Assembly: GCA_003389215.1 (NCBI GenBank)
Contig: QQVP01000011.1
Location: forward strand, 72,315-136,314
Reading direction: 5' to 3'
Length of the DNA stretch: 64,000 bases
Origin: Planctomycetota bacterium
GTDB taxonomy: Bacteria > Planctomycetota > Planctomycetia > Pirellulales > UBA7805
The notes beneath the pieces are model-generated. The model had not been told where the DNA came from. It did no database searches and saw only the letters and a program-made list of their open reading frames with translations. The translations under genes were made by a program, and so were the position numbers. Each line of letters begins with the position of its first letter. Within the stretch, counting starts at the first letter, position 1. This document shows, one piece after another, positions 4,863 through 55,727 of this stretch.

Positions 4863-4895
4863 GGGGTTGGCCGAAACAACCCCATCTTTATTTGC
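4863..4895 (+). terminator. Hairpin plus T-rich tail (intrinsic-terminator-like or regulatory hairpin)
   Basis: GGGGTTG (4863-4869), GCCGAAA loop, CAACCCC (4877-4883), then ATCTTTATTTGC. No convincing upstream + strand CDS for it to terminate, so its function is uncertain. Confidence 0.3.
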
Positions 4896-5614: not shown

Positions 5615-5676
5615 ATCTACGCTCGTATAGGCACACTTGATAACGCGTGGCGATCACGATCCAAGCAATCGGAATG

Positions 5677-5717
5677 CATTGTACAATGGTTCTTGTAATT
5701 CACAAGTTTTTTTGTAC
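5677..5717. promoter_or_regulatory. Cluster of TTGTA(C/A)-based palindromes 10-50 nt upstream of the activator gene (candidate operator)
   Basis: CATTGTACAATG is a perfect 12-bp palindrome (5677-5688). CTTGTAATTCACAAG has 5-bp arms (5692-5706). A TTGTAC half-site lies at 5712-5717. The core TGTACA is the same as in the 18-bp palindrome at 2341-2358. Confidence 0.4.
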
Positions 5718-5726
5718 GATTTTGGG

Positions 5727-9022: not shown

Positions 9023-11404
9023 ATGCCACTGAACGAAAAGGAAACCTGCAAGCAGCTGATTGAACCCGCGCTCGAATCATTGGGCTGGGATTTCGAAGGG
9101 CAACTGCGCATTGGTCCTGGCCGCGTAAATTTCAGCGGCGACAGCGCGGACTCAATGTATGATCCCACTCAGGCGATCATTGCAGATTATCTTTTGCGTT
9201 ACCGTGGCGTCCCCTTGGCGATTCTGGAAGCTAAGGGCGAATCGGAAGATGCCGAAGATGGCATGCAGCAGGCATCGCGATATGCCGATCGCCTGATGAT
9301 CCGGCACTCCATCGCATCCAATGGCCGCGAGTGGATTCTTACCGACAACAAGACCGGTGAATACGAGTCGCTTTCTGCTCCGCCATCCCCGCTGGACATC
9401 GTCAGCCGGATGGGCGTGACCATTGACTGGGATCGCTGGGAAGGTGCATTCACAGCCAACTTTCATGTCGACCAAGTGACTCGCAAGAGGACTCGCCCCT
9501 ATCAGGAAATGGCGATCGCGCAGACGCTCTGGGAATTCGCCCAGGGACGCGACCGCGCCCTGCTCCTGATGGCGACCGGAACTGGAAAAACCTTCACCGT
9601 ATTCCAGCTCATCTGGAAGCTGATGAATGGCGGTGCGCTCAGTCGGCAGCATGTTCTGTTCCTGACGGATCGCAACAGCCTGAAGGACCAGGCATACCGA
9701 GCATTCAACGCGTTTGATGCCAATGAGCGTGTGACCATCGACAAGGCGACAGTCGTCGACGGCAAGCACCAGGTCGGTAAGCTGTTCTTCGCCAATTACC
9801 AGAACCTCGACGAGGATCTGGACGGCAAGAAGGTCTACGAACACTACGATTCGGACTTCTTCGACCTTGTCGTTGTCGATGAGTGTCACCGTAGCGGCTT
9901 CGGTGACTGGTTCGGAGTGCTGGAACACTTCGGCGACGCATTGCAGCTTGGTCTCACCGCCACGCCTCGCGACCTGGAGGAGTCCAAGCGACCGCTGACT
10001 CCCGAGGAGCAGCGTCGCGATACGTATCACTATTTCGGCGAGCCGATCTTCACGTACAGCCTGCGTCGAGCGATCGACGACGGCTATCTCGTGCCGTACC
10101 TGCTCGAAGAGCGCGTCACCAACATTGACGAGGATGGGTACACGGCCGAAGACGGCAAACACTACGAAACGAAGAACTTCGAGCGTGACATCGTCATCCC
10201 CGATCGCACCAAAGCCATCGCCTCCGATTTGTGGGACGTCTTCGGCAAGTACGATCTGCGTGACGAGAAAACCATCATCTTCTGCGTAAATGACACACAC
10301 GCGTCGCTGATGGCGGCGGAACTGCGTCGGCTCTCCGGTGATACCAACTACGCGGCCCGCATCACGCGGTCAGAACGCAACAGCCACCAGTTGGAACGCA
10401 ACTTTGCGGTCGTTGGCAGCGGGAAACCGCGCGTTGCCTGCACGGTCGACCTATTGACCACCGGTTTCGATGCCCCGGACGTCAAAAACGTCGTCTTCGT
10501 GCGTCCGCTCAAGAGTGCCATCCTTTACAAGCAGATGAAAGGGCGTGGCACGCGGCTCTGCGAAGACGTCAACAAGCGTTACTTCACGATCTTCGACTAC
10601 TCCGGTGCCAGTGCCCTGGAAGATGCCGAGTTCGACGGTCATCCCGCGAACAAGCAGAAGGGCACGCTGTCCAAGTCCAAGCCGACGAAGAAGAAGGGCA
10701 AGGATGACGAGCCGGAAACACCGAAGCCGGTGGCGGAAAATGTCCACGTCGTCATGTCGACGACCAACCGCAGCATATCCTTCGGCGACGGACAATGGAT
10801 GCCGTTCGAGGAGTATGCGGCGAAATCAAAAGAGTTCATCCAGACGGTGTCGAGCAGGGACATAAGCCAGTTGCTGGCGATCTGGATCGACAAAAAGAGC
10901 CGCAAGGAACTGCGCGAGGAACTCGGCGATCAGGACATCTACACCTCAGCGTTCCGCCACTACCTGGAACTGCCAGATACGGACGATGTCGACATCCTCG
11001 CCAAGATCGGATTCGACCTGTTTCAGGTTCCGACGCGCAACGACCGGGTTGCGCGATTCTGGGATGAAGAGAACTCTTGGTACGAAACACAGTTCGGCCT
11101 GACGCTCCCGCGTCAGTCCGGTGGCATTCAAACTGGCAGCGAAGATTTCAGCATGGCCGCTGAAGACAGAGGTGCCTTCGAGATTGGCGATAACTGGAAG
11201 GTCGACTTCTGGCGGACTGCTCTTGACCACTACTCGCTGTTCGGCATCGACGATCTGGAGCAGGCACGGACCTACGCGGCTCCCCAGTTTGTCGACCAGT
11301 TTGGCAGCTTTCAGTCACTGACCACCCGCTACGGCGGAGCCCAACTTTTGAAATCAGATCTGGAGGAGGTCAAGGAGCACTTGTACGTGCCCATGGCCAA
11401 TTAG
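9023..11404 (+). CDS. hsdR: Type I restriction enzyme R subunit
   Basis: 793 aa. N-terminal nuclease motif ADYLLRYRGVPLAILEAKGE. SF2 motor motifs LLMATGTGKTFT (I), VVVDECHRS (II), GLTATP (III) and QMKGRGTR (VI). It lies 15 nt after the preceding gene and is followed by hsdM and hsdS. Confidence 0.9.
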   Translation: MPLNEKETCKQLIEPALESLGWDFEGQLRIGPGRVNFSGDSADSMYDPTQAIIADYLLRYRGVPLAILEAKGESEDAEDGMQQASRYADRLMIRHSIASNGREWILTDNKTGEYESLSAPPSPLDIVSRMGVTIDWDRWEGAFTANFHVDQVTRKRTRPYQEMAIAQTLWEFAQGRDRALLLMATGTGKTFTVFQLIWKLMNGGALSRQHVLFLTDRNSLKDQAYRAFNAFDANERVTIDKATVVDGKHQVGKLFFANYQNLDEDLDGKKVYEHYDSDFFDLVVVDECHRSGFGDWFGVLEHFGDALQLGLTATPRDLEESKRPLTPEEQRRDTYHYFGEPIFTYSLRRAIDDGYLVPYLLEERVTNIDEDGYTAEDGKHYETKNFERDIVIPDRTKAIASDLWDVFGKYDLRDEKTIIFCVNDTHASLMAAELRRLSGDTNYAARITRSERNSHQLERNFAVVGSGKPRVACTVDLLTTGFDAPDVKNVVFVRPLKSAILYKQMKGRGTRLCEDVNKRYFTIFDYSGASALEDAEFDGHPANKQKGTLSKSKPTKKKGKDDEPETPKPVAENVHVVMSTTNRSISFGDGQWMPFEEYAAKSKEFIQTVSSRDISQLLAIWIDKKSRKELREELGDQDIYTSAFRHYLELPDTDDVDILAKIGFDLFQVPTRNDRVARFWDEENSWYETQFGLTLPRQSGGIQTGSEDFSMAAEDRGAFEIGDNWKVDFWRTALDHYSLFGIDDLEQARTYAAPQFVDQFGSFQSLTTRYGGAQLLKSDLEEVKEHLYVPMAN

Positions 11405-11414
11405 AAAGACATCC

Positions 11415-12953
11415 ATGAGCAAAGCGAAAACCAAGAACGGAAACGGCTCGGTCGACAGTCGTCGGCAGGAGGTTCGGCAGATCGTCAAGAATGCTTGCGA
11501 TCAGCTGAACTCTGAAGGAGTCGATGCCCGCAACTACGTCGAACAGCTGGCCTGGCTGTTCTTCCTCAAGGCTTTTGACGAAGCCGAAACGCGGCGAGAA
11601 GAAGAAGCCGCATTTGATGACACTGGTTACGAACGCCGTCTGTCCGGCCAGTACGCCTGGTCATCGTGGGCGGCGAAGACGGACCATCCTGATGAGATGC
11701 TGGAGTTTGTCGACGGCAAGCTGTGGATCAAGCTGACCAGCCCCGATCCCAAGAAGGGCTTGGGGGACGATCCATTAGCTGAACGGTTTCGCCGCGTCTT
11801 CGACAACGTCCGCAACTACTGTCGTCGCGGTGCGTCATTCGCGAGAGTCGTAGCACAGGTCAACAAGCTGCATTTCAGCAGCGACACTGACGTGCATGTG
11901 CTGTCGGAGATTTACGAAGACCTGCTCAAACGGGTTGCAGCGGACAGCGCAGGCTATGCGGGTGAGTTCTATACCCAGCGGCACATCATTCGAGCGATGG
12001 TCGAAGTCGTTCATCCGCAGGTAGGCGACAAGGTCTACGACCCCTGTTTCGGTACGTGCGGTTTTCTGGGTGAAGCCGCCGATTACATGCGAGATCCAGA
12101 GCGGAACCCGAAGGCGAAGCAGCTGAGCGGTCGTGATCTGGAGAAATTGCAGTCGAAGACATTCTACGGCCTGGAGATCAAGCCGCTCACGTATCTGCTC
12201 GGCACGATGAACATGATCCTGCATGGGATCGAGTCAGCCAACCTGGAACTGGCCAACACGCTGGAAGTTCACAGCGACAACATCTCCGAGAAGGACCGGT
12301 ACGACGTGATCCTTTCCAATCCACCTTACGGTGGAAAGATGGCGCCTGAGTTGCAGACTAACTTTCGGGTTCGTTCAGCCGCCACCGAATGCCTGTTCCT
12401 GCAGCACATCATGCGGAACCTCGCCAGGGGTGGTCGAGCCGCCGTGATTATTCCTGAGGGCGTCCTGTTTCGTGGTGGCCCCGATCAGAAGGTGCGTCAG
12501 GAACTGCTCGAACATTTCAAAGTGCACACCATCCTGTCGCTTCCGGCTGGTTGCTTCCTGCCATACACCGGCGTGAAGACCAACGTGCTTTTCTTCGATC
12601 GCCCTGAAGCCGAGCCCAAGCCGGGCAAGTTGGCGACGAAGGACGTCTGGTATTACGAGCTGACCAACGACGGGTTCGAGTTGAAGCAAACGCGTCGCCC
12701 GATCGACGGCGATCAGCTTCCCGACTTCCTCACAAAGTGGAAGAAGCGGACCGAGGGGGACAACTCCTGGAGAGTGCCAGTCGCTGAGATCATCGAACGC
12801 GGCTACGACCTGTCTGCCAAGAATCCGAACCACAAAGATGACTACGAGCATCGACCCGCGCTCGAATTGGTTCAGTCGATCCGTGCCAAAGAAGAACGGA
12901 TCATGGATCTGCTTGGCGAGCTGGAAGCCATTTTGGAGGGTGACGATGCCTAA
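11415..12953 (+). CDS. hsdM: Type I R-M N6-adenine DNA methyltransferase subunit
   Basis: 512 aa with an HsdM_N-like N-terminus, the AdoMet motif VYDPCFGTCGFL and the catalytic motif ILSNPPYGG. Confidence 0.92.
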   Translation: MSKAKTKNGNGSVDSRRQEVRQIVKNACDQLNSEGVDARNYVEQLAWLFFLKAFDEAETRREEEAAFDDTGYERRLSGQYAWSSWAAKTDHPDEMLEFVDGKLWIKLTSPDPKKGLGDDPLAERFRRVFDNVRNYCRRGASFARVVAQVNKLHFSSDTDVHVLSEIYEDLLKRVAADSAGYAGEFYTQRHIIRAMVEVVHPQVGDKVYDPCFGTCGFLGEAADYMRDPERNPKAKQLSGRDLEKLQSKTFYGLEIKPLTYLLGTMNMILHGIESANLELANTLEVHSDNISEKDRYDVILSNPPYGGKMAPELQTNFRVRSAATECLFLQHIMRNLARGGRAAVIIPEGVLFRGGPDQKVRQELLEHFKVHTILSLPAGCFLPYTGVKTNVLFFDRPEAEPKPGKLATKDVWYYELTNDGFELKQTRRPIDGDQLPDFLTKWKKRTEGDNSWRVPVAEIIERGYDLSAKNPNHKDDYEHRPALELVQSIRAKEERIMDLLGELEAILEGDDA

Positions 12954-14124
12954 ATGGCCAACCAAGCCTCTCGGCGAACTTTGCCAGCTCATCAATGGCC
13001 GAGCGTTCAAGCCCAGCGATTGGGGCAAAGAAGGGTTGCGCATTGTTCGGATACAGAATCTCAATGATCACGCAAAACCTTTCAATCATTTTGCGGGCGA
13101 CTACAGCGAGAAGCACTACATCGACGACGGGGAAATCCTGCTTTCATGGTCGGGAACTCCCGGAACTTCCTTTGGCTGCTTTCGATGGCAGCGAGGACCA
13201 GGATTGCTCAACCAGCACATTTTCAGGGTGGAGGTTGCGGATTCGATCATCGACGGCGACTTCTTCATCTACGCCGTGAATAGCAAGCTCGACGAAATGA
13301 TTCGACAAGCGCATGGGGGCGTTGGCCTTCGTCACATTACGAAAGGGAAACTGGAAGCAATTACCCTTCCTGTGCCATCACTAGAGGAGCAGCGAAGAAC
13401 CGTAAACAAGATCAACGAATGCCTCACACGAGTGACCGAAATTGAGAGGCTTCGCCTTGAGTCGCTTACGGAAGCAGAGGTGTTGGCCCCGTCGCTCTAC
13501 GAGGCAATTGAAGGGGATGGTAAATGGCCGCGTCGGCCCGTTGGTGAAATCATCCGTCAATCTCGTAACGGACGATCCATCAAACAAGGGAATGGATCCA
13601 GTAATGGCCGTGTTCTCACTCTAACAGCGGTTCGCGAAGTGTCTCTCGACTTTGATGCCGGTAAGGCGGTTTCAATACCTGATGATGTTGCATCGCAGTT
13701 TTCGATCTCTGCTGGCGATGTATTTGTGTCGCGGTCGAATACGCGAGACCTTGTGGGCTTGTCATCCGTAGCAGAAGAGACTCCTAAAGAACGACTCATT
13801 TACCCGGATCTACTGATCAAATTGACCCCAAGTCTTGACGTCATTCGACCAAGGTTTCTGGCATATGCGCTGAGAGCATCGGATAGCCGCAGGCAAATCA
13901 AAGAGAGAGCCCTCGGTAGCAGCCAAACGATGGTCAAGATTTCTGGTGAGCGGCTGAAAGAGGTAGCGATTCCAGTACCGCCACTGGATCGCCAAGACGC
14001 GATTATCGGTCAGTTTGATCAACTGCACGACTTAGCGGCATCCATTCTTAGTGGCATGCGATCTGTCGAATTTCATCGAGTCCGAGAATCCGTACTTCGC
14101 AAAGCCTTTGCAGGGGAGCTGTAA
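12946..14124 (+). CDS. hsdS: Type I R-M specificity subunit with two target-recognition domains
   Basis: I prefer the ATG at 12946 (MPKWPTKPLGELCQLINGRAFKP…), which overlaps the hsdM stop by 8 nt, over the 12838 start of the ORF track. Two TRDs are each followed by a conserved helix (LPVPSLEEQRRTVNKI and IPVPPLDRQDAIIGQF). Confidence 0.88.
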   Translation: MPKWPTKPLGELCQLINGRAFKPSDWGKEGLRIVRIQNLNDHAKPFNHFAGDYSEKHYIDDGEILLSWSGTPGTSFGCFRWQRGPGLLNQHIFRVEVADSIIDGDFFIYAVNSKLDEMIRQAHGGVGLRHITKGKLEAITLPVPSLEEQRRTVNKINECLTRVTEIERLRLESLTEAEVLAPSLYEAIEGDGKWPRRPVGEIIRQSRNGRSIKQGNGSSNGRVLTLTAVREVSLDFDAGKAVSIPDDVASQFSISAGDVFVSRSNTRDLVGLSSVAEETPKERLIYPDLLIKLTPSLDVIRPRFLAYALRASDSRRQIKERALGSSQTMVKISGERLKEVAIPVPPLDRQDAIIGQFDQLHDLAASILSGMRSVEFHRVRESVLRKAFAGEL

Positions 14125-14129
14125 TCAAC

Positions 14130-17100
14130 GTGGCTGACGTGTCGTCCCACAATGCGATCTGGCAAATGCTCGACCGAGTACGTGCCAATTCCCCGATCTC
14201 CGGCAGCGAGTTCGGTGTGGCACTCGCTGCCCTGATCTTTCTTCGCTGGGCCGATTTCGAGGAAGCCGAACGGGAAGCTATCGCCGCCTTCGACGACGTT
14301 GACTACGAACCCGTGCTCCCCGCCAAATTCCACTGGCGATCGTGGTGCAATATCCACGATCCCCGTGAGCTCGAATACCCCTTTCGAGAACTCCCCTCGG
14401 CGCTCGATCGCTTCTCCAATTCCCGCCACGACGCGATGGCCACTCAACTCCACCGCGTCGCTCCCGCCGTCGAGAAGCTGACTCGTTTACCTGCCGACAC
14501 TCTCGCCCACCTCATCCACTGGCTGGCCGACCAGCCCTTTGAGACTCCCAAAGACCGGCGAGCACTCCGCGACGTGCTGGATTTCGTGTTGCAGAACACC
14601 TACGACAAGTTTGCGGGACAGTTCTTTACGCCGATACAGATCGCGGCCCTGATGGTCGAGCTGGCCAAGCCGAAGTCAGGCGAATCGGTCTACGATCCGT
14701 GCTTTGGTTCCGCCGGCTTACTCACCGCAGCCCTGGAGATTGCGGAACACCGCGACCATGTGCGGCTAGGCGGTTCGACCTATGCGCCTGGCAAACAGCC
14801 TTTGCATCTCGCCGGTGTCGAGATCAATCAAGATGCGTACGTCATCGGCATGACACGGCTCGTACTCTCCGGTGTCAATGATCCTCAGATTGAGCTGGGG
14901 AACAGCCTCGAACGGCTGCCATCCAATAATCCCAACTCCGATGGCTTCGACATCGTCCTGGCGAATCCTCCTTGGGGCATGAAGGTCGAGCTGTACGGCC
15001 TGGATCACTACCCGATTCCAATAAAAGATTCATCGTCACTGTTTCTGCAACATGCGATCTCGCAACTTCGGCCTGGTGGGCGGGGCGTGGTAGTTGTTCC
15101 ACCAAGCCTGTTGTTTCGCTCCGGTCGCGAACAGCAACTCCGCGAATGGCTGCTTCATGAGAACACCGTTGAGGCAGTCGTCTCGATCCCGCGAGGCGCA
15201 TTCTCTCCGCATACGTCGATCGAAACCTGCTTGCTGCTGTTTCGTCGCGGAGGTACGACAAGGTCGGTACGGATGGTCAGCGCCGAATCAATCTTTGAGA
15301 AAAGCGACAAGAGTCAGATCGCAGCAGCCCCTTTTGTTTTGGCTGCGCAATTGGGTCATCACGTTCGTTCGCCTGAGCCGGGCCGCGAATGGTGGGACGT
15401 TGATATCGAAGAGCTGGCCGAACTCGACTACGACCTCACTCCTAAACGCCGGGACCGTAGCGGCCTCGAACTCATCCTGGATTCGCTTCCCAAAGAGGCG
15501 GAAATCCGTCTGCTCAAAGACTGTTGCACGGTGACAACCGGTCGCAATATCCGATCAAGCGATTTGACCCAGTCTCCACCGAGATCGAACTACGAACCAT
15601 CGGGCCAGACATTGTTCCCCGATGTTGAACAATCAGAGATCAATCCGCAAAGACCCTTCGAGTTTGCCGATACTCCGATTCCCTACATTCGCATTCGCGA
15701 TGTGGAAAAGGGACACGCGACCCGGGGTTCGTCATGGCTGATGCCTGCCGTCGCATCCACGATCGAATCGAAATGGAAGCTCCGCGCTGGAGACATCCTG
15801 CTGTCCAAGTCGGGCACGATTGGCAAAGCAGGCCTCGTTCGTAACGGAGCGGTGGGAGCAATCGCGGCGAATGGCTTCTTCGTCATCAGAGTCAAAGAAG
15901 GGACGATTGATCCGCATTACCTGCTTGCCTACCTGCAAAGCACTGAGGCCAATGCCTGGCTGGAGGATCGCGCACGAGGAACAGCCGCGAAACACCTTTC
16001 GGTTGCCTCGATCAAAGAGCTTCCGATCGCACTGCCGCCGCTACAGATCCAGCAACGCACGGCAGATCAGCACCGAAAGTTTGGTGTCGACGCACTGACA
16101 TATTTGGCGGAGCTACTCACTGAAGATGAGTCTGATTCCCTTGCGGCTGAGCTCAATGACTGGGTATCTCAAAATCTCAAGCGAGTTGAAAGCTACGAGG
16201 GTGATCCCGCCAGTCAGAATGTGCTGGAATTGCTTGAGGAAGTCGCAGACTCCCGCTGTCCAATCAACACCTGCAAAGATTGTAAGCACCCCTATTACCT
16301 GGACTACTCGACAAACTACATCGAGCCTCCAACCGATTACGCAAAGGGCATCGAGTCCCATTGCCTCGAATGTTGGCTGGGGCTTGAACCCAGGGCAGAC
16401 CATGTCGACTGCTTTGAGGACGAGACGCCGATTGGACCATGGGCAGTTGAGTTCAGAGGAGTAACGAAGCCCCTCGCAGGCGTTTCGAGCATCCCAGACC
16501 CGACGGCTCTGGTCAGCGTGCTTCAGCGAGTTGCATCGCAACTACGCGACACGGCTGCGCTCATCGATGGGAACCTGCCAAATCAGGAGCGAGCGAGGCT
16601 CCTTACGGGGCGAGTTGCCAGCCTCATCAATCGCTATACCCAGGCTTTGCTCGAAGACGCCAAGCTGGCAGTCGATGTCATATCGGCGACCGAAGATCAC
16701 TTTGGTGGGATTGACATTCGTCTTGAGATCCAAAACCGGGGTCGAGTTCCCCTACGCGATGTTCGGTTTTCAATGTACCCACCAATGGACGAGGTCGAGC
16801 CACGCGCAGTCGCGTTCATGCAACCGGGGCACCGTTATGAAATCCAGTTCCAGGGACAGAGTCAACGTCTTTCTGACGAAATAAGTGTCGCTGAAATGTG
16901 GTCTGATCCAGCTTGGACCATCAGCTGGACTGCAAGAGATCTCGCCGGGGAGGCTGTTGAAGGAACGCGAGACCTGAGCATTAGCCTTGGTTCCGATGAA
17001 ACTTGCCTGGAGAATGAGCAAGAATCGGCCGGAAACCTGGACAGCAGCCCTTACGTCTGCGGCGATCCTGTTACCCGAGAACGACACGATGTGTTCTTTG

Positions 17101-18350
17101 GGAGGGACGATCTCCTCAATCAGATCAAACGCCAGGTGTCTCAAACCGGCAACGTTGTGTTGTTGGAAGGTAATCGCCGAGCCGGAAAATCATCGGTGCT
17201 TTGGCACCTAGAAGGCGCAAACGGGGTGCCCGGATGGTTGGGTGTCTATTGCAGTTTGCAAGGCACGGAGGGCGATAGCTCTGGCGGCATTCCGACCGCC
17301 GAGGTTTTTCGCGGCGTCGCATACGAGATCGTTCAAAGCATTCGCAAGCTGAACGGTTCCGCGGTATTGCCTGATGGCACTCTGCTTGACGGAGAGCGAC
17401 GGCTGGGGATTGCGAGATCGTTGCGTCAGGGAATCAGCGACGAAAGTCCGTTTCAGGACTTCCGTGAGTACCTCGAACTAATTCTTGAAACGCTTGCCGA
17501 ACGACAGCTCGGCCTGTTGTTGATGCTTGATGAGTTCGACAAATTGCAGGAGGGAATCGACAAAGGCATTACCTCGCCCCAGGTACCCGAGAACATCCGG
17601 TTCCTTGTGCAGTCCTACCCGAGATTCTCCGCCATTCTCACTGGCTCGCGCCGACTAAAGCGGATGAGAGAGGAGTACTGGTCTGCATTGTTCGGGCTGG
17701 GCACGCGACTCGGCGTATCCGCGTTGCCGTTTGAAGCAGCGTCGAGACTGGTCACGGAGCCTGTCGCTGGCCGCCTGTCGTTCTCAAAATCTGCTGTCAG
17801 CCGCGCCTACGAATTGACCGCCGGGCAACCGTACCTATTGCAGTGCCTGTGTAATCGCGTTTTCGACATTGCTGCTCGAACCGGAGTCCGCTCGATCACT
17901 GTTGATCACGTCAACGATGCCGCTGATGCATTGGTTGAGGACAACGAGCATTTCGCCAGCCTTTGGGATTACACCGAGTTTGATCGGCGTCGATTCCTGC
18001 TCTATCTGCTCCATCGTGAGGAGAACGGCCCTGATCCAATGCGGCTGGGTGTGATCGAGGCGAAGCTGGAAGAAGCCGGAGTGGAGCTCCGTGAAGAAAT
18101 AGTTATCGCCGACCTTGAGTACCTGAGGGAACTTGAGCTTGTCGATCTGCACGGTGAGTCGTCGGGCGCGTGGTATTCCCTGACGATTCCCATGATGGGG
18201 CAGTGGTTGGACTCGCAGCAGGATTACGAGGTTCTTCGCAGCCGCGCGCGAGCCGAGGCGGAAGATATCAGTGGCAAACTCGGTGAGATCGCAGGCCTAC
18301 GCGGCGAAATTGAAGAACTTGAAGACTCAATGGATTCTGAAGATGACTGA
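14130..18350 (+). CDS. Fusion protein: HsdM-like N6-adenine methyltransferase + single HsdS-like TRD + Cys-rich (Zn-ribbon-like) segment + beta-rich segment + STAND/AAA-type ATPase + winged-helix-like C-terminus
   Basis: 1,406 aa with a GTG start 5 nt after the hsdS stop.
- MTase: VYDPCFGSAGLL (about 14690) and VLANPPWG (NPPWG 14964-14978).
- TRD, about 15510-16060: GDILLSKSGTIGKAGLV…FFVIRVKEG…HLSVASIKELPIALPPLQIQQR.
- Cys cluster: CPINTCKDCKHPYY…HCLECW (about 16255-16380).
- ATPase: FFGRDDLLNQIKRQV…VVLLEGNRRAGKSSVLWHL (Walker A about 17167-17195), LLLMLDEFDKL (Walker B about 17512-17540), ELTAGQPYLLQ. Confidence 0.85.
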   Translation: MADVSSHNAIWQMLDRVRANSPISGSEFGVALAALIFLRWADFEEAEREAIAAFDDVDYEPVLPAKFHWRSWCNIHDPRELEYPFRELPSALDRFSNSRHDAMATQLHRVAPAVEKLTRLPADTLAHLIHWLADQPFETPKDRRALRDVLDFVLQNTYDKFAGQFFTPIQIAALMVELAKPKSGESVYDPCFGSAGLLTAALEIAEHRDHVRLGGSTYAPGKQPLHLAGVEINQDAYVIGMTRLVLSGVNDPQIELGNSLERLPSNNPNSDGFDIVLANPPWGMKVELYGLDHYPIPIKDSSSLFLQHAISQLRPGGRGVVVVPPSLLFRSGREQQLREWLLHENTVEAVVSIPRGAFSPHTSIETCLLLFRRGGTTRSVRMVSAESIFEKSDKSQIAAAPFVLAAQLGHHVRSPEPGREWWDVDIEELAELDYDLTPKRRDRSGLELILDSLPKEAEIRLLKDCCTVTTGRNIRSSDLTQSPPRSNYEPSGQTLFPDVEQSEINPQRPFEFADTPIPYIRIRDVEKGHATRGSSWLMPAVASTIESKWKLRAGDILLSKSGTIGKAGLVRNGAVGAIAANGFFVIRVKEGTIDPHYLLAYLQSTEANAWLEDRARGTAAKHLSVASIKELPIALPPLQIQQRTADQHRKFGVDALTYLAELLTEDESDSLAAELNDWVSQNLKRVESYEGDPASQNVLELLEEVADSRCPINTCKDCKHPYYLDYSTNYIEPPTDYAKGIESHCLECWLGLEPRADHVDCFEDETPIGPWAVEFRGVTKPLAGVSSIPDPTALVSVLQRVASQLRDTAALIDGNLPNQERARLLTGRVASLINRYTQALLEDAKLAVDVISATEDHFGGIDIRLEIQNRGRVPLRDVRFSMYPPMDEVEPRAVAFMQPGHRYEIQFQGQSQRLSDEISVAEMWSDPAWTISWTARDLAGEAVEGTRDLSISLGSDETCLENEQESAGNLDSSPYVCGDPVTRERHDVFFGRDDLLNQIKRQVSQTGNVVLLEGNRRAGKSSVLWHLEGANGVPGWLGVYCSLQGTEGDSSGGIPTAEVFRGVAYEIVQSIRKLNGSAVLPDGTLLDGERRLGIARSLRQGISDESPFQDFREYLELILETLAERQLGLLLMLDEFDKLQEGIDKGITSPQVPENIRFLVQSYPRFSAILTGSRRLKRMREEYWSALFGLGTRLGVSALPFEAASRLVTEPVAGRLSFSKSAVSRAYELTAGQPYLLQCLCNRVFDIAARTGVRSITVDHVNDAADALVEDNEHFASLWDYTEFDRRRFLLYLLHREENGPDPMRLGVIEAKLEEAGVELREEIVIADLEYLRELELVDLHGESSGAWYSLTIPMMGQWLDSQQDYEVLRSRARAEAEDISGKLGEIAGLRGEIEELEDSMDSEDD

Positions 18351-19992
18351 TACTATGTTTCCAATTCGTAGCACTGACCACGTGCCAATGATCGGGCGAC
18401 AAGCCTTGCTGGATTCGATATGGGGCAAGCTGACAAAAGCATCGCCGGACAATCTTTCGATTGTTGGTCCCAAAGACATTGGCAAGACCGTCTTGCTGAA
18501 TGCTCTTGTGGAACGTGCAAAGCAGGACGACTCACCGTATTCGCTCGTCATCTATTGGCAGCTCGGCTACGCGCCACCCCAATCTGATCATGAATTCATT
18601 CAGCAGTTAAGTGATTTACTATTTGCTGCGATGGGGACGGACACAAACACTTACGCAGAGGCGAGAAGTGAAATAGAGAAAGGGCGTGAAAGCGATGCGG
18701 GTGTGTCCTTCATGCTTCTCCGCGAGATCATGGAAGACATTCAGAACTACCTTGAGAAATCGGTTCTGATGATTTGGGATGGTTTTGACAAGCCGCTCAG
18801 TCAAGCGCTGCTAACCGGTCAACTTTTTGGGAATCTTCGTGATCTATTCTATGGAAAACGCCACCGTGTCGTGACTGCAACACGGAAGACCCAAACGGAA
18901 CTGGCGAGAAATAAACAGGTTGAGGACAGTCCATTCTGGAACATGTTCGACGTCAATCCGGTCCGTGTAGGCCCCTTTGATGAGAACGACATTGAGCACG
19001 CATTGAGCAGTGCCTTGCTGACAATCAATCAAGGGGGAAGAAAAGAGCTAGCGAATTGGACTGGTGGCCACCCGGTGCTCCTGCTTTCGCTCCTGAACAC
19101 CTTAATGGCCTCGGGTGACAGCGAACTGACCAACGAGCACGTCAATGTCGCGGCTGGAAAGGTCGCGTCTGAACTGTCCGACTTTCTGGATAAGCTGTGG
19201 ACAGAGTGCACCGCTTCTGCAAAGAACGCATTTCAGTTAATCGTCGAAAATGACAGCCTGGACAAGGATCGTATCGGGAAAGAAGAGACACGCTACTTGC
19301 TCGCTCGCGGCTTCGCCGTTCGCGACGGCGCAAAGATAAAGTCCTCGTGTCGATTGTTTGAGCAGCATGTTCGTGGGGCTAAGCCCGACACCGGCACGTT
19401 GGACCGCTTGTTTGGTTCGTGGGAGGCCTATCAAAATGAAATTCGCACGCTCCTTGAGCTGCGAATGAAGCAAATACGCATTATAAATGCTCGCCTCCAC
19501 AAGTTGGTAAGTCAGTGTCTTGGCGACATCCCGGATTACCCAGATGACTGTCTCAATAATCTCACTCGAATTGAGGAATTGGCGCTCGATCTCATTTGGC
19601 AGCATGAATTTGACGGGGCACAGGCGATTCCGAACGATCTTGTGGCGTACTGGACGCAACACCCTCGCGATTCTGACAAAGTGATCAAGAAACGCATGGA
19701 AGACAATGACTGGGATCTGCCACGCGACAGGCTCAAGCAACTCGTCATTCTTCAACGGCTGACCGGCAGTGCACCGGACTTCGAGGCAAAAGCCAAATCA
19801 GTGTCGAAAGACACATATGTGCTTCTAAATGCCATTCACCAGTTCCGCAACCGGACGGAACATGCCGACGGCCAACATATACACGTGGGCGTCGCAGTCT
19901 CCGGCGTTCTTCTCTGCATTGAGCTCTTGAGCTGCCTGGAAAGAGAGTTGGGCGGGACTGCAGGCCAGATCACAACCGGAGGTACAACGTAG
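18343..19992 (+). CDS. STAND/AAA-type ATPase with C-terminal HEPN-like domain (Rx4H motif)
   Basis: I prefer the ATG at 18343 (MTDTMFPIRS…), which overlaps the upstream stop as ATGACTGA. Motifs: Walker A IVGPKDIGKTVLL (18466-18489), Walker B-like VLMIWDGFDK, TGGHPVLL. Near the C-terminus, LNAIHQFRNRTEHADG carries RNRTEH at 19846-19863. Confidence 0.8.
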   Translation: MTDTMFPIRSTDHVPMIGRQALLDSIWGKLTKASPDNLSIVGPKDIGKTVLLNALVERAKQDDSPYSLVIYWQLGYAPPQSDHEFIQQLSDLLFAAMGTDTNTYAEARSEIEKGRESDAGVSFMLLREIMEDIQNYLEKSVLMIWDGFDKPLSQALLTGQLFGNLRDLFYGKRHRVVTATRKTQTELARNKQVEDSPFWNMFDVNPVRVGPFDENDIEHALSSALLTINQGGRKELANWTGGHPVLLLSLLNTLMASGDSELTNEHVNVAAGKVASELSDFLDKLWTECTASAKNAFQLIVENDSLDKDRIGKEETRYLLARGFAVRDGAKIKSSCRLFEQHVRGAKPDTGTLDRLFGSWEAYQNEIRTLLELRMKQIRIINARLHKLVSQCLGDIPDYPDDCLNNLTRIEELALDLIWQHEFDGAQAIPNDLVAYWTQHPRDSDKVIKKRMEDNDWDLPRDRLKQLVILQRLTGSAPDFEAKAKSVSKDTYVLLNAIHQFRNRTEHADGQHIHVGVAVSGVLLCIELLSCLERELGGTAGQITTGGTT

Positions 19993-22097
19993 TGAAAGCG
20001 TCCGAAGCCAAACTTCTGGAGTTCCTCAAAAAGTCTCCACAATTCATTATCCCGATTTATCAACGAACTTACTCGTGGACGGAGCGGGAATGCCTTCAGC
20101 TTTGGGAGGACATTCTTCGAACGGGGCGAAACGAGAAGGTGTCGGCTCACTTTGTCGGCTCCATCGTTTACATCGAGAAGGGGCTTTACCAGGTGTCCAG
20201 CCAGACGCCGCTGCTGGTCATCGACGGGCAGCAGCGACTTACGACGATTGCTCTCCTTCTGGAGGCTCTCGCCCGCCACCTAGGTGACGGCGAACCCGTC
20301 GATGGGTTCTCGGCCAAAAAAATCCGCAATTACTATCTGCTTAACCCACTAGAAGATGGCGAACGCGGCTTCAAGCTCCTGCTGACTCAAACGGACAAGG
20401 CAAGCCTACTGGCGATCGTCCAGCAAAAGAATCAGCCCACTGAAAAATCGCTGCGAGTGACTGAGAACTTTGCATTGTTCGAGGAGCAACTCCAATCGAT
20501 CGGTGACGACATCGTTGCGCTCTGCAACGGCTTGGCGAAACTGATCATCGTCGACGTCTCACTTAATCGTGATCAGGACAATCCGCAGCTGATCTTCGAG
20601 AGCATGAACTCAACAGGCCGGGAACTTAGCCAGGCGGACCTGATTCGCAACTACATTTTGATGGGCCTTGAGCCAGCACATCAAACAACGCTCTATGACG
20701 ACCACTGGCGGCCCATGGAAGTTGCCTTTGGCCAGGAAGCCTACGGGAGCCATTTCGACAAGTTCATGCGTCATTACCTGACGCTCAAGACTGGAGATAT
20801 TCCGAATGTCCGTGCGGTTTATGAGGCATTCAAATCACACGCTAGATCGCCAGAAGTTGTGACAATCGGCGTGGACGGCCTAGTTGCCGACATTCACACC
20901 TTCGCTCGGCACTACTGTGCGATGGCGCTTGGACAGGAGACGGACAAATCACTTGGCGCAGCCTTTCAGGACTTGCGTGAACTCAAGGTCGATGTTGCTT
21001 ATCCGCTTTTACTTGAACTGTATCACGACTATTCCACTGGGCTGCTGTCTGTTGAAGACTTCCATTCTGCAGTGCGACTGGTCGAGGCGTATGTTTTCCG
21101 ACGCGCTATCTGCTCAATTCCCACTAATTCGCTCAACAAGACCTTCGCGAATTTCGCTCGTGTCTTGAAGAAAGATCGGTATCTCGAGAGCATTCAAGCC
21201 AACCTCTTGTTGCTTCCATCATATCGACGATTTCCGAGTGATGATGAGTTCATGAGAGAAATCAAGGTTCGCGACCTTTACAGCTTCCCGCGGCGCAGCT
21301 ACTGGCTGCGACGAATGGAAAACCACGGACGCAAAGAACGCGTGATGGTTGATGAGTACACCATCGAACACATCATGCCGCAGAACCCAAGACTATCCGC
21401 GAAATGGCAGGAGTCGCTCGGTGCGGAGTGGCAGCGGGTCCACAAGGCCTGGCTGCATACCCTCGGGAACCTCACACTCACTGGATACAACTCCGAGTAC
21501 AGTGACCGCCCTTTCACCGAGAAACGTGATATGCAGGGCGGCTTCAAGGACAGCCCACTTAAGCTGAACGAGGGACTCGGTACCCTCGACGCCTGGGACG
21601 AGGCTGCTATTCAGCAGCGGGCCAGTAAGTTGGCGGGACGAGCCGTCCAAGTTTGGCAAGCTCCGAGTCTTGGCGAGGAGGCGTTGGAAGCCTATCGCCC
21701 AAAGTCAGAGAAGCAAGCCGGGTACACGATCGAAGACCACCCGCAACTAGCCGTCGATGCGTCGATGCGTTCTTTGTTCGAGGCGTTTCGAAAGGAAGTA
21801 CTGTTGCTTGACCCTTGCGTCACCGAGGAGTTTCTGAAGCTCTATGTCGCCTACAAGGCAGAAACAAACTTTGTCGACATTGTTCCTCAAAAGAGTCGCC
21901 TTCGACTTTCGATCAACATGGAATTTCACGAGATCAACGATCCGCGAAGCGAATGCAAGGATGTGACAAACCTTGGCAGGTGGGGTAACGGCGACGTGGA
22001 AGTCAGCCTGAGTAAACTCGAAGACCTCCCCTACATCATGGGTTTGGTCAGGCAGGCGTTTGAGAAGCAGATGGGCAATGGAGACGAGAATGGTTGA
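19992..22097 (+). CDS. GmrSD-family type IV (modification-dependent) restriction enzyme: DUF262 + DUF1524, with an extra C-terminal domain
   Basis: 701 aa. GTG start shares one base with the upstream TAG (TAGTG). DUF262 motifs: IPIYQRTYSW and LLVIDGQQRLTTI. The DUF1524 His-Me-finger-like region reads YTIEHIMPQN…WLHTLGNLTLTGYNSEYSDRPF. Confidence 0.85.
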   Translation: MKASEAKLLEFLKKSPQFIIPIYQRTYSWTERECLQLWEDILRTGRNEKVSAHFVGSIVYIEKGLYQVSSQTPLLVIDGQQRLTTIALLLEALARHLGDGEPVDGFSAKKIRNYYLLNPLEDGERGFKLLLTQTDKASLLAIVQQKNQPTEKSLRVTENFALFEEQLQSIGDDIVALCNGLAKLIIVDVSLNRDQDNPQLIFESMNSTGRELSQADLIRNYILMGLEPAHQTTLYDDHWRPMEVAFGQEAYGSHFDKFMRHYLTLKTGDIPNVRAVYEAFKSHARSPEVVTIGVDGLVADIHTFARHYCAMALGQETDKSLGAAFQDLRELKVDVAYPLLLELYHDYSTGLLSVEDFHSAVRLVEAYVFRRAICSIPTNSLNKTFANFARVLKKDRYLESIQANLLLLPSYRRFPSDDEFMREIKVRDLYSFPRRSYWLRRMENHGRKERVMVDEYTIEHIMPQNPRLSAKWQESLGAEWQRVHKAWLHTLGNLTLTGYNSEYSDRPFTEKRDMQGGFKDSPLKLNEGLGTLDAWDEAAIQQRASKLAGRAVQVWQAPSLGEEALEAYRPKSEKQAGYTIEDHPQLAVDASMRSLFEAFRKEVLLLDPCVTEEFLKLYVAYKAETNFVDIVPQKSRLRLSINMEFHEINDPRSECKDVTNLGRWGNGDVEVSLSKLEDLPYIMGLVRQAFEKQMGNGDENG

Positions 22098-22240: not shown

Positions 22241-23668
22241 ATGGAACAACAGAAGGAGATTGTCGACGTATTCCTCTGCCATAACGGTGCGGACAAGGAT
22301 TGGGTCCGGAGACTTGGGGAACAAATCGAATCGGAAACGTTTGATGGAAAGTCCACAGGAAGGTCGTTGCGGGTCTTCTTCGACGAATGGGATATCGACG
22401 TAGGTCAGAATGTTCCCCAGCGGTTGAACATGGCATTGAAGGCAAGCCGGTACGTCGCAGTTATCATTTCTCCGGAGATGCTCGCAGCTCCCTGGCCAAC
22501 CTTTGAGTGGACGCACCTCGTTGCCGATGATCCTACCAATCGCCGAGGCAGGATCATTCCTTTGTTTTTTCGGGACTACTCGTTCACAACTGACACTTAC
22601 GCTGAGTTGCCTGCACCATTCAAGGCGTTGAATTGGATCGATTTCCGGTCGCAAAATGATTTCAAACAAAGTTTCCAGAAGCTAATCCGCAAGGTACGGG
22701 ACCTGCCCCCTGCCCGAGGAAAGCGGCGTCGCCCTATTGCTTCGGAGAGTGGAAGCGTCCCGCAACCACTTCACAAACCGTCTGACGAGTCCGCAGCGGC
22801 CCCGGACAAAGTGTCGGATTTTGTTCTAAGCAACCTGCTCCCTGTTGAGGATTATCCCAAGACTATCTGGGTGGCTCCTACCGATGCAAGAATGCCGAAG
22901 CATGTAAGGGACCAAGCTGGTGACACGTCTGCATTCGTCCTGCAGGACAAGAAGCTCTTGACGTTCTCGGATCTCACGATTGAAGGCCAACCGCTGCGTG
23001 CGGTTGTCGACCAGTCGAAAATTGAATCGAAGCCGGTTGGGGAATGGCGTGATGATCAAGTCCGTTGGCGGTGGATCGTCACGCTCTTGAACAAGTGTCT
23101 TCGGTCACACTTTGGTGGATTACCTATCCGACGAGACGCAAAAGGGCGTTACTACTTTATGCCAAAGCATGGCGAAGCTCGCCTTTGGAAGAATGGACAC
23201 GACCCTGAACGAACTGTCGCGGATCAAAAAACGAATGCGAGGGGCGACGTTTTCTGGGTCCATCACTCTGCACGTCTTGCATTTCAGACACTCGGGGATG
23301 CTATCTATCTTTGCATTGAGCCATCGTACGTCTTTACGACCGACGGTAAACAGCCTCTCGAAGGTAAATCGGTGGGACCGCTTTCAATCAAATGGGGTGG
23401 CAAGGAGCGAAACGCTGCAATCCTAAGGCACGTCGTGTTTTGGGCACGCACTCTGTCGAAGGGGGGCACCAAGATTGAGATAGAGACTGGAGGACTACCA
23501 ATAACGCTCTCGGGCATACCGGCCTTTGCGAGAACTACCTTTGGAATTGAGTTTGACCACATTGGCATTGGAACTTTGATTCAGCAGGCAGAGGACGAAC
23601 TAGCTCTAGCGGCTGAAGCAGTGTCATCATCCACTGACCGAGGCGATGAGGCAGAGGATGAGGACTGA
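22241..23668 (+). CDS. TIR-APAZ protein (SPARTA effector subunit)
   Basis: 475 aa. N-terminal TIR: VFLCHNGADKDWV…RVFFDEWDIDVGQN…YVAVIISPEMLAAPWPTFEW. A ~300-aa C-terminal region follows. The gene sits 3 nt upstream of a short pAgo gene. Confidence 0.85.
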   Translation: MEQQKEIVDVFLCHNGADKDWVRRLGEQIESETFDGKSTGRSLRVFFDEWDIDVGQNVPQRLNMALKASRYVAVIISPEMLAAPWPTFEWTHLVADDPTNRRGRIIPLFFRDYSFTTDTYAELPAPFKALNWIDFRSQNDFKQSFQKLIRKVRDLPPARGKRRRPIASESGSVPQPLHKPSDESAAAPDKVSDFVLSNLLPVEDYPKTIWVAPTDARMPKHVRDQAGDTSAFVLQDKKLLTFSDLTIEGQPLRAVVDQSKIESKPVGEWRDDQVRWRWIVTLLNKCLRSHFGGLPIRRDAKGRYYFMPKHGEARLWKNGHDPERTVADQKTNARGDVFWVHHSARLAFQTLGDAIYLCIEPSYVFTTDGKQPLEGKSVGPLSIKWGGKERNAAILRHVVFWARTLSKGGTKIEIETGGLPITLSGIPAFARTTFGIEFDHIGIGTLIQQAEDELALAAEAVSSSTDRGDEAEDED

Positions 23669-23671
23669 CCA

Positions 23672-33015: not shown

Positions 33016-33042
33016 GCTGTATCCGAATAGGAATTCACTGAA

Positions 33043-35733: not shown

Positions 35734-35774
35734 TTTGAAATACATTTCATAGGCCGACCACCTCCGTCGAGAAT

Positions 35775-48198: not shown

Positions 48199-48271
48199 CT
48201 CTTTTTATCTCCAGTGTTCTAGGGTAGCGCCTGAGTTCCGTTGACTCGTAGCTTGGTCGACGATTGATTTG

Positions 48272-50701: not shown

Positions 50702-50843
50702 ATTGAATTCTTCAATTGGATGCTGGAGGTAGTACGCAATCGATCCGGCGATTGCAAAAAAGCGGCCCGAACGTATTCAATGCGAAAGGATGTTTGTGAG
50801 GAATGGTGCCGATCGAGTTGATAAACTCCGTCAAAGGTCCCAG

Positions 50844-53204: not shown

Positions 53205-53271
53205 GACAAGTGGTACTCTCGCGTCGAATCAATACGTTGGCCGCGACACGCTGCCGCTGGGCATCCCGGAT

Positions 53272-55683
<2,412 letters not shown>

Positions 55684-55727
55684 GATTACTCCGACCCTTC
55701 AGTCTTAGTGTCAGCGACGAGTCCAAC

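Follow-up and report, generated by a model that had tools for sequence, protein, structure and literature searches.

The gene at positions 14130-18350 of a 64-kb stretch of planctomycete DNA (from contig QQVP01000011.1; we call the whole 64,000-nucleotide stretch the window) encodes an HsdM-like DNA methyltransferase (MTase) and a single HsdS-like target-recognition domain (TRD), fused to an ATPase of the ORC/STAND type. The original prediction, which was made from the letters of the window, described this fusion behind a complete hsdRMS set. The unit is a two-gene module: the fusion is followed by a second STAND protein, which we will call STAND2. The module usually lies in a sigma-54 operon, and the original prediction missed both the partner and the operon. 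We propose that the fusion may be the sensor half of this conserved STAND pair, and that the pair would act as an inducible second layer of defense beside Type I restriction. This proposal is tentative, and we would give it a little less than an even chance of being right. The two genes and their parts are:

14130-18350, + strand: the fusion of an HsdM-like MTase, a single HsdS-like TRD, a helical linker, a beta-sandwich, an ORC/STAND-type ATPase, a winged helix, and a terminal helix
14571-15464, + strand: N6-adenine MTase catalytic domain (amino acids 148-445; Pfam N6_Mtase)
15642-16079, + strand: the single HsdS-type TRD and its conserved helix (amino acids 505-650; Pfam Methylase_S, PADLOC Specificity_I)
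16254-16379, + strand: a lineage-restricted CxxC...CxxC insertion (amino acids ~709-750)
16665-16973, + strand: beta-sandwich domain (amino acids 846-948; predicted model)
17052-18341, + strand: NTPase core of the ORC/Cdc6-STAND type, lid, winged helix, and C-terminal helix (amino acids 975-1404; Foldseek, Walker motifs)
18343-19992, + strand: STAND2, 549 amino acids, with a STAND NTPase, a winged helix, and a C-terminal helical domain
19474-19965, + strand: candidate HEPN-like effector domain of STAND2 (amino acids 378-541; E422, R502-N-R-T-E-H507, predicted helices)

The open reading frame (ORF) of the fusion starts with GTG and encodes 1,406 amino acids without interruption. Its existence and the predicted order of its domains are confirmed by the ORF itself, by Pfam, by profile searches, and by a structural model. 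Pfam's N6_Mtase covers amino acids 148-440 (E = 2.8e-46), and Methylase_S matches a single TRD at amino acids 547-646 (E = 7e-11). Pfam finds the HsdM_N-like start weakly (E = 0.004), but a profile of the fusion family aligns to the Type I HsdM structure from T. tengcongensis (5ybb_A) from residue 5 onwards (E = 1.3e-73), so this part of the prediction also stands. The family profile matches HsdS structures across the TRD as well, and it gave no match by sequence to the PDB for the C-terminal half. The motifs were all found as quoted: the S-adenosylmethionine (SAM) motif VYDPCFGSAG at 187-196 (motif I, YDPCFG, at 188-193), NPPWG at 279-283 (motif IV), Walker A (GNRRAGKS, 1014-1021), and Walker B (LLMLDEFDK, 1130-1138, with DEFDK at 1134-1138).

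For the ATPase region, the Pfam matches (AAA_16, ATPase_2, and nSTAND1, over amino acids 978-1238) are all below their gathering scores, and the STAND-type fold is supported by a confident AlphaFold2 model and by Foldseek. The model of amino acids 661-1406 has a predicted local distance difference test score (pLDDT) of 87.6 and a predicted template modeling score of 0.79. From its N-terminal end onwards it shows a helical linker, the beta-sandwich (846-948), the core with the P-loop, a lid, a winged helix (1322-1363), and finally a long helix, which bears out both the beta-rich segment and the winged-helix-like tail of the original prediction. The beta-sandwich has eight strands (pLDDT about 90) and is poorly conserved in sequence, with a median pairwise identity of 28%. 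The best Foldseek matches to the model are DNA-bound ORC1/Cdc6 proteins (7jgr_A, 2v1u_A, 2qby_A), followed by CED-4, Apaf-1, NLRs, and TnsC. The cysteines that had been singled out are present, as CxxC at 715-718 and 745-748; in the model they lie in a small beta-hairpin, probably a zinc ribbon of small size. But they are not a family domain: they are found in only 7 of 69 orthologues and in none of the 14 relatives of another alignment, so the cluster is a lineage-restricted insertion. (Here and below, conservation was counted among 69 fusion orthologues and 73 partner orthologues from genome assemblies.)

The fusion belongs to a broad family. With the C-terminal half as the query, we found over 380 homologues in a set of 5.8 billion proteins, and most of these are about 1,290 amino acids long with the same layout of MTase, TRD, and ATPase. 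In an exhaustive HMMER scan of proteins clustered at 50% identity, 311 cluster representatives matched at E <= 1e-30. When we looked for the fusion and its neighbors in other genomes, as the original prediction had suggested, a scan of one genome per species found relatives in at least 111 species from about 15 phyla. The closest relatives are from other Planctomycetota (Gimesia, 90% identity; Planctopirus, 87%), and the other phyla include Desulfobacterota, Pseudomonadota, Cyanobacteria, Acidobacteriota, Gemmatimonadota, Spirochaetota, and Verrucomicrobiota. Three plasmids of Acinetobacter ursingii also encode the fusion, and one of these is a clinical IMP-4 resistance plasmid. No copies were found among 50,697 phage records. 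The possibility that a frameshift or an assembly error had joined two genes, which the original prediction had raised against itself, is ruled out by the 69 intact, collinear, full-length orthologues and by the Gimesia and Planctopirus relatives at 87-90% identity. In Novipirellula herctigrandis (locus 10001-15463), the orthologue is longer, with 1,844 amino acids and a second tandem ATPase module at the C terminus, and the partner lies about 1.2 kb farther downstream than usual.

Among the models of Pfam, NCBIfam, and PADLOC (the 2023 version of PADLOC-DB), none names the fusion; its PADLOC matches are to the generic MTase_I and Specificity_I only. Existing annotations call it "N-6 DNA methylase" and call its partner "ATP-binding protein". 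Among 8.3 million papers searched by full text, subscription-only ones aside, there are accounts of the regulatory chassis, of Ronin, and of systems related to BREX, and we found nothing that describes the fusion or its partner. The original claim that the fusion lies outside of described restriction-modification (R-M), BREX, and DISARM systems thus holds for the named models and the papers that we located.

STAND2 (about 530 amino acids in the family) is encoded directly after the fusion in 76 of the 77 loci that have downstream sequence. In the window, its ATG overlaps the stop codon of the fusion by 8 nt (ATGACTGA), and the same overlap is seen at other loci; in most loci, the stop codon of the fusion and the start codon of the partner overlap. 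No third gene is conserved downstream of the partner across loci. In Pfam, STAND2 passes the cutoff for AAA_35, falls below the gathering score of NACHT, and matches NB-ARC weakly. Its predicted structure (pLDDT 89.6) is most similar to archaeal ATPases of the PF01637 type (2qen, 2fna), Cdc6/ORC, plant NLRs, Avs3, and CED-4. The NTPases of the two proteins are paralogous (hhalign probability 96.3%, E = 1.6e-9). Walker A and Walker B are invariant across the orthologues of STAND2, as they are in all 69 relatives of the fusion.

Is the methylase head a writer of DNA methylation or a sensor? Motif I is kept in 65-68 of the 69 relatives, P280 and P281 are each found in 68, and the aromatic residue after the two prolines is nearly invariant. 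Residue 279 of motif IV, the catalytic N/D, is N, D, or S in 38 relatives. The remaining 31, which come from all of the architecture classes, have A, V, H, Q, or T instead, and we count at least 4 transitions at this position, with 16 changes of residue. The copy in the window keeps NPPWG, and the copy from the Acinetobacter plasmid has HPPV. We also compared median pairwise identities within the 35 loci that have the complete six-gene arrangement of activator, hsdR, hsdM, hsdS, fusion, and partner:

HsdR 72%; HsdM 75%; HsdS 25%
fusion TRD 49%; fusion MTase domain 42%; fusion ATPase 60.5%

Within the fusion, conservation is highest in the ATPase. The canonical HsdS shows the usual shuffling of specificity; the TRD of the fusion is not diversified. 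Methyl transfer is, by these patterns of conservation, dispensable across the family, with the SAM/adenine pocket, the TRD, and the ATPase all retained. Because the N/D of motif IV is often lost, while the TRD is conserved and the SAM and P-P-W motifs and the ATPase are nearly invariant, the head is more likely to be a sensor than an obligate writer. The original prediction of a methylation reader/writer therefore survives in part: writing is plausible for the window's copy, with its intact NPPWG, but the role as reader or sensor is better supported across the family. The fusion does represent a second MTase of the HsdM type with a distinct architecture, as predicted, with a single TRD in cis and the ORC/STAND-type ATPase as an extension; its MTase domain is about 30% identical to the neighboring HsdM.

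The original prediction saw no nuclease motif, which is true of the fusion, but its obligate partner has a candidate HEPN RNase domain. This is the sole consistent candidate effector of the module. Residues 352-541 of STAND2 are all helical in the model: a helix at 407-422 ends in E422, an insert (431-473) follows, a helix at 489-501 leads into R502-N-R-T-E-H507, and a final long helix spans 515-541. HEPN domains have been described as having an acidic residue in helix 2 and a variable insert between helices 2 and 3, among other features (PMC3710099), and the predicted helix topology of the window's STAND2 fits that description. All 73 orthologues have E422 and H507, and 72 of them have N or D at position 503. 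Residue 502 is R in 28 orthologues and G in 45. Every protein with G502 has R408 and every protein with R502 lacks it, so that an Arg is found at one of the two positions, and never at both, in 73 of 73 proteins. Of the 549 columns, only 502 and 408 divide the family so; judging from a quick tree, the switch happened independently about four times. This exclusive pattern argues that one required Arg can be supplied from either 502 or 408, as would be expected of an active site.

The profile evidence for this domain is weak. Per-member Pfam scans gave sub-threshold matches of single members to the HEPN clan (Hypoth_Ymh, E = 0.012; DUF4145, E = 0.12; HEPN_Swt1, E = 0.16), which sit among roughly two dozen matches at noise level. 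The isolated C-terminal domain has no significant match in Pfam, and per-member scans of NCBIfam and PADLOC as well as PDB sequence profiles were also empty. A profile search of a large database with this domain returned only fragments of the same family. When the whole chain was compared by Foldseek to PDB and BFVD, the NTPase dominated the matches and no significant match to a HEPN fold emerged. Based on the predicted topology and the conserved residues, we regard the C-terminal domain of STAND2 as a candidate HEPN domain, an identity that we think is likely.

As the original prediction stated, the fusion starts 5 nt past the stop codon (at 14124) of a complete hsdRMS set. Upstream of the fusion, the window contains:

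5637-7238, + strand: RtcR-like sigma-54 enhancer-binding activator, 533 amino acids, with a divergent CARF/RtcR-type N-terminal domain, a Sigma54_activat AAA+ domain, a lid, and a helix-turn-helix
7239-7254, + strand: sigma-54 -24/-12 promoter element TGGCACACCCGTTGCT, 1 nt past the activator's stop codon
7316-9007, + strand: X613, an extra lineage-specific gene between the promoter and hsdR (ORF listed from 7166)
9023-11404, + strand: hsdR, Type I restriction subunit, 793 amino acids (PADLOC REase_I, E = 1.3e-94)
11415-12953, + strand: hsdM, canonical Type I MTase subunit, 512 amino acids (PADLOC MTase_I, E = 4e-141)
12946-14124, + strand: hsdS, specificity subunit with two TRDs (PADLOC Specificity_I, in two stretches)

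The ATG of hsdS, at 12946, overlaps the stop codon of hsdM by 8 nt. The activator matches Sigma54_activat from Pfam (E = 9.8e-69) and NCBIfam's RtcR (362 bits over amino acids 68-521, which is under its cutoff), and its N-terminal domain weakly matches RtcR (E = 1.9e-4) and Csm6_CARF. The promoter element is the sole perfect match to TGGCAC-N5-TTGCW in the window. An equivalent element, with at most 1 mismatch, lies 4-160 nt past the activator gene in 40 of 43 loci; the background is about 2 such elements per 24-kb locus when both strands are counted. The element precedes hsdR in the six-gene loci and directly precedes the fusion in three-gene loci. An RtcR-type activator and a -24/-12 promoter usually head the operon of the module, and we predict that its expression depends on sigma-54. 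Scans for terminators and sigma-70 promoters across the operon gave results no different from those for shuffled sequence.

Among the 61 loci with enough upstream sequence, the activator is upstream of the module in at least 39. The architectures of these loci are:

activator, hsdRM(S), and the pair: 30 of 61 loci
hsdRM(S) and the pair, no activator detected: 8 of 61 loci
activator and the pair, no hsdRM: 9 of 61 loci
neither activator nor hsdRM within reach: 14 of 61 loci

The loci without an activator or R-M have no universal upstream partner. In one Acinetobacter ursingii plasmid (NZ_MH220285.1, record 194747-202512; IMP-4), the genes are ordered HsdR-fusion-partner and overlap by 8 nt, hsdM and hsdS are missing as separate genes, and a gene with a WYL domain is upstream instead of the sigma-54 activator. 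Two sister Acinetobacter plasmids have the same module, apparently disrupted (in 3-4 tblastn pieces). One other locus (L008) also has an HsdR-like gene directly upstream of the fusion.

Within the 35 six-gene loci, HsdR and HsdM of the cassette are strikingly conserved across phyla (medians of 72% and 75%, and never below 60%), and identity is much lower, at 37-60%, for the fusion and its partner. The conservation of hsdR and hsdM suggests that the R-M part either spread horizontally in recent times or is under strong constraint.

X613 probably starts at the ATG at 7316, which is downstream of the promoter. It has weak matches to Cmr2_N and Cas10b-like models (E about 1e-3) and no match by sequence in the PDB. 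A gene of this family is found in this position only in the window, Gimesia, and Planctopirus; relatives are near the activator on the opposite strand in two other loci (L074 and L082) and downstream in another (L025). One idea is that X613 makes a ligand for the activator's CARF-like domain.

Links between RtcR-like activators and R-M systems were noted in 2014 (Makarova et al., PMC4012209), and defense superoperons headed by RtcR were described in 2024 (Bell et al., PMC11090510). A supplementary table of the 2014 paper lists one member of the fusion family, from Desulfococcus oleovorans Hxd3, without comment. In Supplementary File 4 of PMC4012209, the chassis of activator, hsdR, hsdM, and hsdS is also found with other fifth genes, such as an ABC-type ATPase (AAA_23, AAA_21, DUF3696), in Desulfobacterium autotrophicum HRM2, Geobacter uraniireducens Rf4, and others; some of the hsdR genes in this file have an N-terminal DUF4145 (HEPN) domain. 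This suggests a single chassis with interchangeable second-line modules.

Our proposal for how the module works starts from what the analysis shows: how the module is built, that its two proteins are obligately paired and have paralogous NTPases, that the sigma-54 promoter is conserved, that the TRD does not diversify, and that the catalytic N/D is dispensable across the family. The RtcR-like activator would sense a danger signal through its CARF-type N-terminal domain and fire the -24/-12 promoter behind its own gene, so that hsdRMS, the fusion, and STAND2 would be transcribed as one unit. The fusion would probably dimerize, via its single TRD and helix, into a core like the M2S of Type I systems. 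Its HsdM/HsdS-like head would recognize a fixed site in DNA by flipping the target adenine into the SAM/P-P-W pocket, which has been retained, and the planctomycete copy in the window, with its intact NPPWG, might also methylate the site that it reads. Engagement of the head would switch the fused ATPase, which would co-assemble with the paralogous, translationally coupled partner. The HEPN-like domain of STAND2 would thereby be activated to cleave RNA and arrest the infected cell, and the cleavage products could feed back on the activator. Complex formation, the trigger, the RNase activity, the HEPN identity, and the defense phenotype are what we infer here. A role in defense is supported by the dense defense island around the module, with GmrSD, TIR-APAZ and a short prokaryotic Argonaute (pAgo), and a Tiamat-like protein. 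Also, PrrC, RloC, and paraMORC-Ymh are precedents for proteins with an NTPase and a HEPN domain within Type I R-M loci (PMC3710099), and the pair would back up Type I restriction much as PrrC and RloC do.

Several points weigh against our proposal. In the clade with a degenerate motif IV, an inducible reader of unmethylated DNA would have no obvious means of sparing the host. Neither the activator nor hsdRM can be essential, because 14 of 61 loci have neither within reach. The HsdR-fusion-partner variant from Acinetobacter is a hint of possible joint action of the fusion and HsdR, something our proposal does not need. No significant profile or fold match places the C-terminal domain of STAND2 in HEPN, and the canonical HEPN Arg is missing from its motif position in 45 of 73 orthologues.

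The main rival to our proposal is that the head is a bait that mimics the core of a Type I MTase and does not read DNA at all. Phage anti-restriction proteins (the DNA mimics Ocr and ArdA, or Stp-like peptides) would bind the head and switch the ATPase, and the partner's effector would be released. This would be an anti-anti-restriction form of abortive infection, working as Ronin or PrrC does but on a STAND pair. In Ronin, the HsdM/HsdS bait for Ocr, ArdA, and Aop1 is independent of motif IV (bioRxiv 10.1101/2023.04.06.535777); in the fusion, the catalytic N/D is lost in 31 of 69 relatives, and the TRD is conserved and undiversified. The module is also tightly linked to one conserved family of Type I R-M systems in at least 38 of 61 loci, and STANDs commonly sense phage proteins directly, with Avs3 among the fold matches of the partner. 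However, the near-invariant YDPCFG and P-P-aromatic motifs exceed the needs of a pure bait, the ATPase is most similar to DNA-bound ORC/Cdc6 and carries a winged helix, the MTase domain is only ~30% identical to the HsdM that it supposedly guards, and 14 of 61 loci have no R-M nearby. We consider a bait somewhat unlikely. We think it quite improbable that the fusion is instead an alternative M and S module of a Type I-like or BREX-like core, with a built-in ATPase switch. Such a core would dock HsdR, or exclude DNA as in BREX; a fixed host motif would be methylated as a mark of self, unmarked DNA would be restricted, and STAND2 would be a regulator or loader and not an RNase. The Acinetobacter ursingii plasmids, with HsdR directly upstream (8-nt overlap) and no separate hsdM or hsdS, speak for this, as does the HsdR-like gene directly upstream in L008. 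BREX does pair a TRD-bearing MTase with ORC/STAND-like ATPases (PMC12839542), the profile of the fusion family touches BrxX/PglX structures as well, and NPPWG is intact in the window's clade. But self-marking cannot be general, given H-P-P-V in the plasmid copy and 31 of 69 relatives without the N/D; HsdR is missing from at least 23 of 61 loci; the models for PglZ, BrxC/DUF499, and Hma have no matches; and the invariant E422 and H507 and the mobile Arg of STAND2 would be left unexplained.

Least probable of all, and in our view very unlikely, is an orphan or second methylase of the Type I family for epigenetic regulation or extra protection, with both ATPases having housekeeping or regulatory roles unrelated to defense. 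The annotators' label ("N-6 DNA methylase") points this way, the MTase domain scores strongly, and the catalytic motifs are intact in the window's copy. This agrees less well with the ATPase being the most conserved part while the catalytic N/D is frequently lost, with the obligate pairing with a second STAND, and with the consistent setting in defense islands under sigma-54 or WYL regulation. We also considered a more specific picture, which taken as a whole we regard as somewhat unlikely: a pair like the sensor and helper NLRs, with the Type I MTase core as a receptor for nucleic acids or for anti-restriction proteins, a helper with a HEPN-type RNase, and an activator that senses RNA damage and switches the pair on. 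As part of this picture, the pocket of the [A/V]-P-P-W clade, having lost the hydrogen-bonding N/D, may read N6-methyladenine instead of writing it; the catalytic Arg of the HEPN domain would have moved between two positions several times; and the 2',3'-cyclic-phosphate products of the RNase would form a positive feedback loop.

Beyond the module, positions 4919-39173 of the window (+ strand) are a ~34-kb run of closely spaced, co-directional genes: an unknown 231-amino-acid ORF, the activator, X613, hsdRMS, the fusion, STAND2, GmrSD, TIR-APAZ, the short pAgo, a protein of 2,567 amino acids, an SNF2 helicase, and a DEAD/ResIII helicase. A terminator-like hairpin (4862-4884) is just ahead of the run, and a gene for a tyrosine integrase (39266-40285, - strand) is just behind it. 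No tRNA genes were found in the window, including at the island's border. The run looks like a defense superoperon headed by RtcR on a possibly mobile island. Its other parts, followed by two features that lie beyond it, are:

19992-22097, + strand: GmrSD-type Type IV restriction protein (GmrSD_N and GmrSD_C) with a C-terminal DUF5655 (PADLOC "Orf5", E = 1e-199); its start overlaps the stop codon of STAND2 by 1 nt
22241-25282, + strand: SPARTA-like pair, with TIR-APAZ at 22241-23668 and the short pAgo at 23672-25282 (PADLOC pAgo_I, E = 1e-150)
25312-39173, + strand: the 2,567-amino-acid protein, with an N-terminal sacsin/HATPase domain and matches to PADLOC's TmtA models, then the SNF2-family helicase (896 amino acids) and the DEAD/ResIII helicase (1,132 amino acids)
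45832-58076, - strand: five tandem genes of about 790 amino acids each; three of them were scanned, and all three encode sulfatases that carry an SGSH_C domain
58133-59590: a DUF1254/DUF1214 protein, after the sulfatase genes

We take the TmtA models to be those of Tiamat, and 25312-39173 may be a larger Tiamat-like system. The sulfatase genes are a typical planctomycete array and are unrelated to the fusion.

If our proposal is correct, then the pair is an unnamed and phylogenetically broad defense module, in at least 111 species from about 15 phyla and also on a clinical Acinetobacter IMP-4 plasmid. It would join three themes that have been studied apart until now: R-M enzymes that are re-used as sensors, pairs of STAND/NLR-like sensors and executors, and the induction of immunity by RtcR-like sigma-54 activators. 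If the sensor/helper picture is correct, the fusion would be the first STAND known to have a DNA MTase as its sensor. The NPPW and [A/V]PPW clades share an architecture, which makes them a natural experiment on the MTase fold once catalysis is dispensable. The "echeloned defense" that was proposed for RtcR-type systems would become testable, with a short and defined promoter and an effector pair of just two genes. And because annotation pipelines label these proteins as "N-6 DNA methylase" and "ATP-binding protein", censuses of defense systems and interpretations of methylomes would miss or misread the module.

How does the module compare to known systems? The N-terminal 650 amino acids of the fusion resemble the HsdM2-HsdS1 core of Type I systems (EcoKI, EcoR124I, and 5ybb from T. 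tengcongensis): they form a gamma-class N6-adenine MTase of the HsdM type, with the HsdM_N-like start and an HsdS-type TRD and helix, and the gene can share an operon with hsdR. Unlike a Type I system, the fusion joins M and S in one chain, has just one TRD, and adds ~750 residues (linker, beta-sandwich, ATPase, winged helix); its TRD is non-diversifying, its catalytic N/D is often lost, and it has an obligatory STAND partner. NCBIfam's hsdM model (TIGR00497) scores 61 bits on the fusion against a cutoff of 243. As in PrrC, RloC, and paraMORC-Ymh, a protein with an NTPase and a C-terminal HEPN domain (a candidate HEPN-like one in STAND2) is encoded in or after hsdRMS; PrrC and RloC act as a second line once restriction is neutralized (PMC3710099). 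The differences are that the NTPase of STAND2 is of the STAND/ORC type and not ABC (Rad50/SbcC-like, as in PrrC and RloC) or GHKL, that its HEPN domain is a candidate assignment, that a dedicated MTase-TRD-ATPase sensor is interposed, and that the pair is also found without any R-M. Ronin (Silas et al. 2023 preprint) re-uses a Type I M/S module for sensing, as we propose for the fusion, does not need motif IV, and is linked to other restriction systems. But Ronin has separate HsdM and HsdS, a membrane effector of 61 amino acids (RonA), no ATPases, and usually no hsdR. In the module described here, the M/S part is joined in one chain to a STAND ATPase, and its partner is a STAND protein with a HEPN-like domain. 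Across loci, and among ORFs of at least 90 amino acids, there is no conserved small gene (transmembrane or otherwise) by the pair.

The BREX, BR, and Hma systems also combine a TRD-bearing N6-adenine MTase with ATPases of the ORC/STAND type (BrxC, BrxB, DUF499), and the DUF499 ATPase of BREX-related systems often carries a fused HEPN domain (PMC12839542). Unlike those systems, the fusion system has no PglZ, BrxA, BrxL, or conserved helicase (the optional HsdR aside); its MTase is of the HsdM type with a C-terminal HsdS-type TRD instead of the PglX type or the nested-TRD type; and the MTase and the ATPase are in one polypeptide. For NCBIfam's BREX_1_MTaseX (PglX) the fusion reaches 28.6 bits, where the cutoff is 500, and for BREX_6 it reaches 20.5 of the required 900. 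BrxC does not match the fusion and matches STAND2 at E = 0.01 over the P-loop only. PglZ has no match among the window ORFs that were scanned, and the DUF499 and Hma models match neither the fusion nor STAND2. For MADS, the MTase and TRD parts of the fusion weakly match the MAD2 and MAD5 models, but at 71.9 bits against 720 and 51.3 against 400, and the eight-gene mad1-8 context is missing; STAND2 has a "mad8" match that covers the P-loop only (E = 0.003). More broadly, for the C-terminal half and STAND2, no match supports membership in MADS, BREX, BR/Hma, Avs, DISARM, or any PADLOC family.

The module has the STAND NTPase switch in common with Avs proteins and paired plant NLRs, and its best fold matches include Avs3, NLRs, Apaf-1, and CED-4. 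Two paralogous STANDs, one with an integrated non-STAND domain and the other with a candidate effector, resemble the sensor/helper pairs of plants in particular. Avs systems, unlike this pair, are single genes with N-terminal effectors, a STAND core, and a TPR-like sensor at the C terminus, and the models of the fusion and STAND2 contain no TPR, LRR, or WD40 repeats; PADLOC's Avs models match neither protein. In the literature that we searched, we found no report of a DNA MTase with a TRD as the integrated domain of a STAND. Finally, as in the superoperons headed by RtcR (Bell et al. 2024) and the R-M-linked activators (Makarova et al. 2014), an RtcR-like CARF/sigma-54 activator stands at the 5' end of a long array of genes that all run in one direction, Type I R-M among them. 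The fusion and STAND2 are described in neither paper, and the conserved promoter right behind the activator's stop codon is documented here; no CoCoNuT was recognized in the window. The ingredients are known, namely the Type I M/S module, STAND switches, HEPN-like effectors, and RtcR-type control, but their combination appears to be undescribed in the papers searched.

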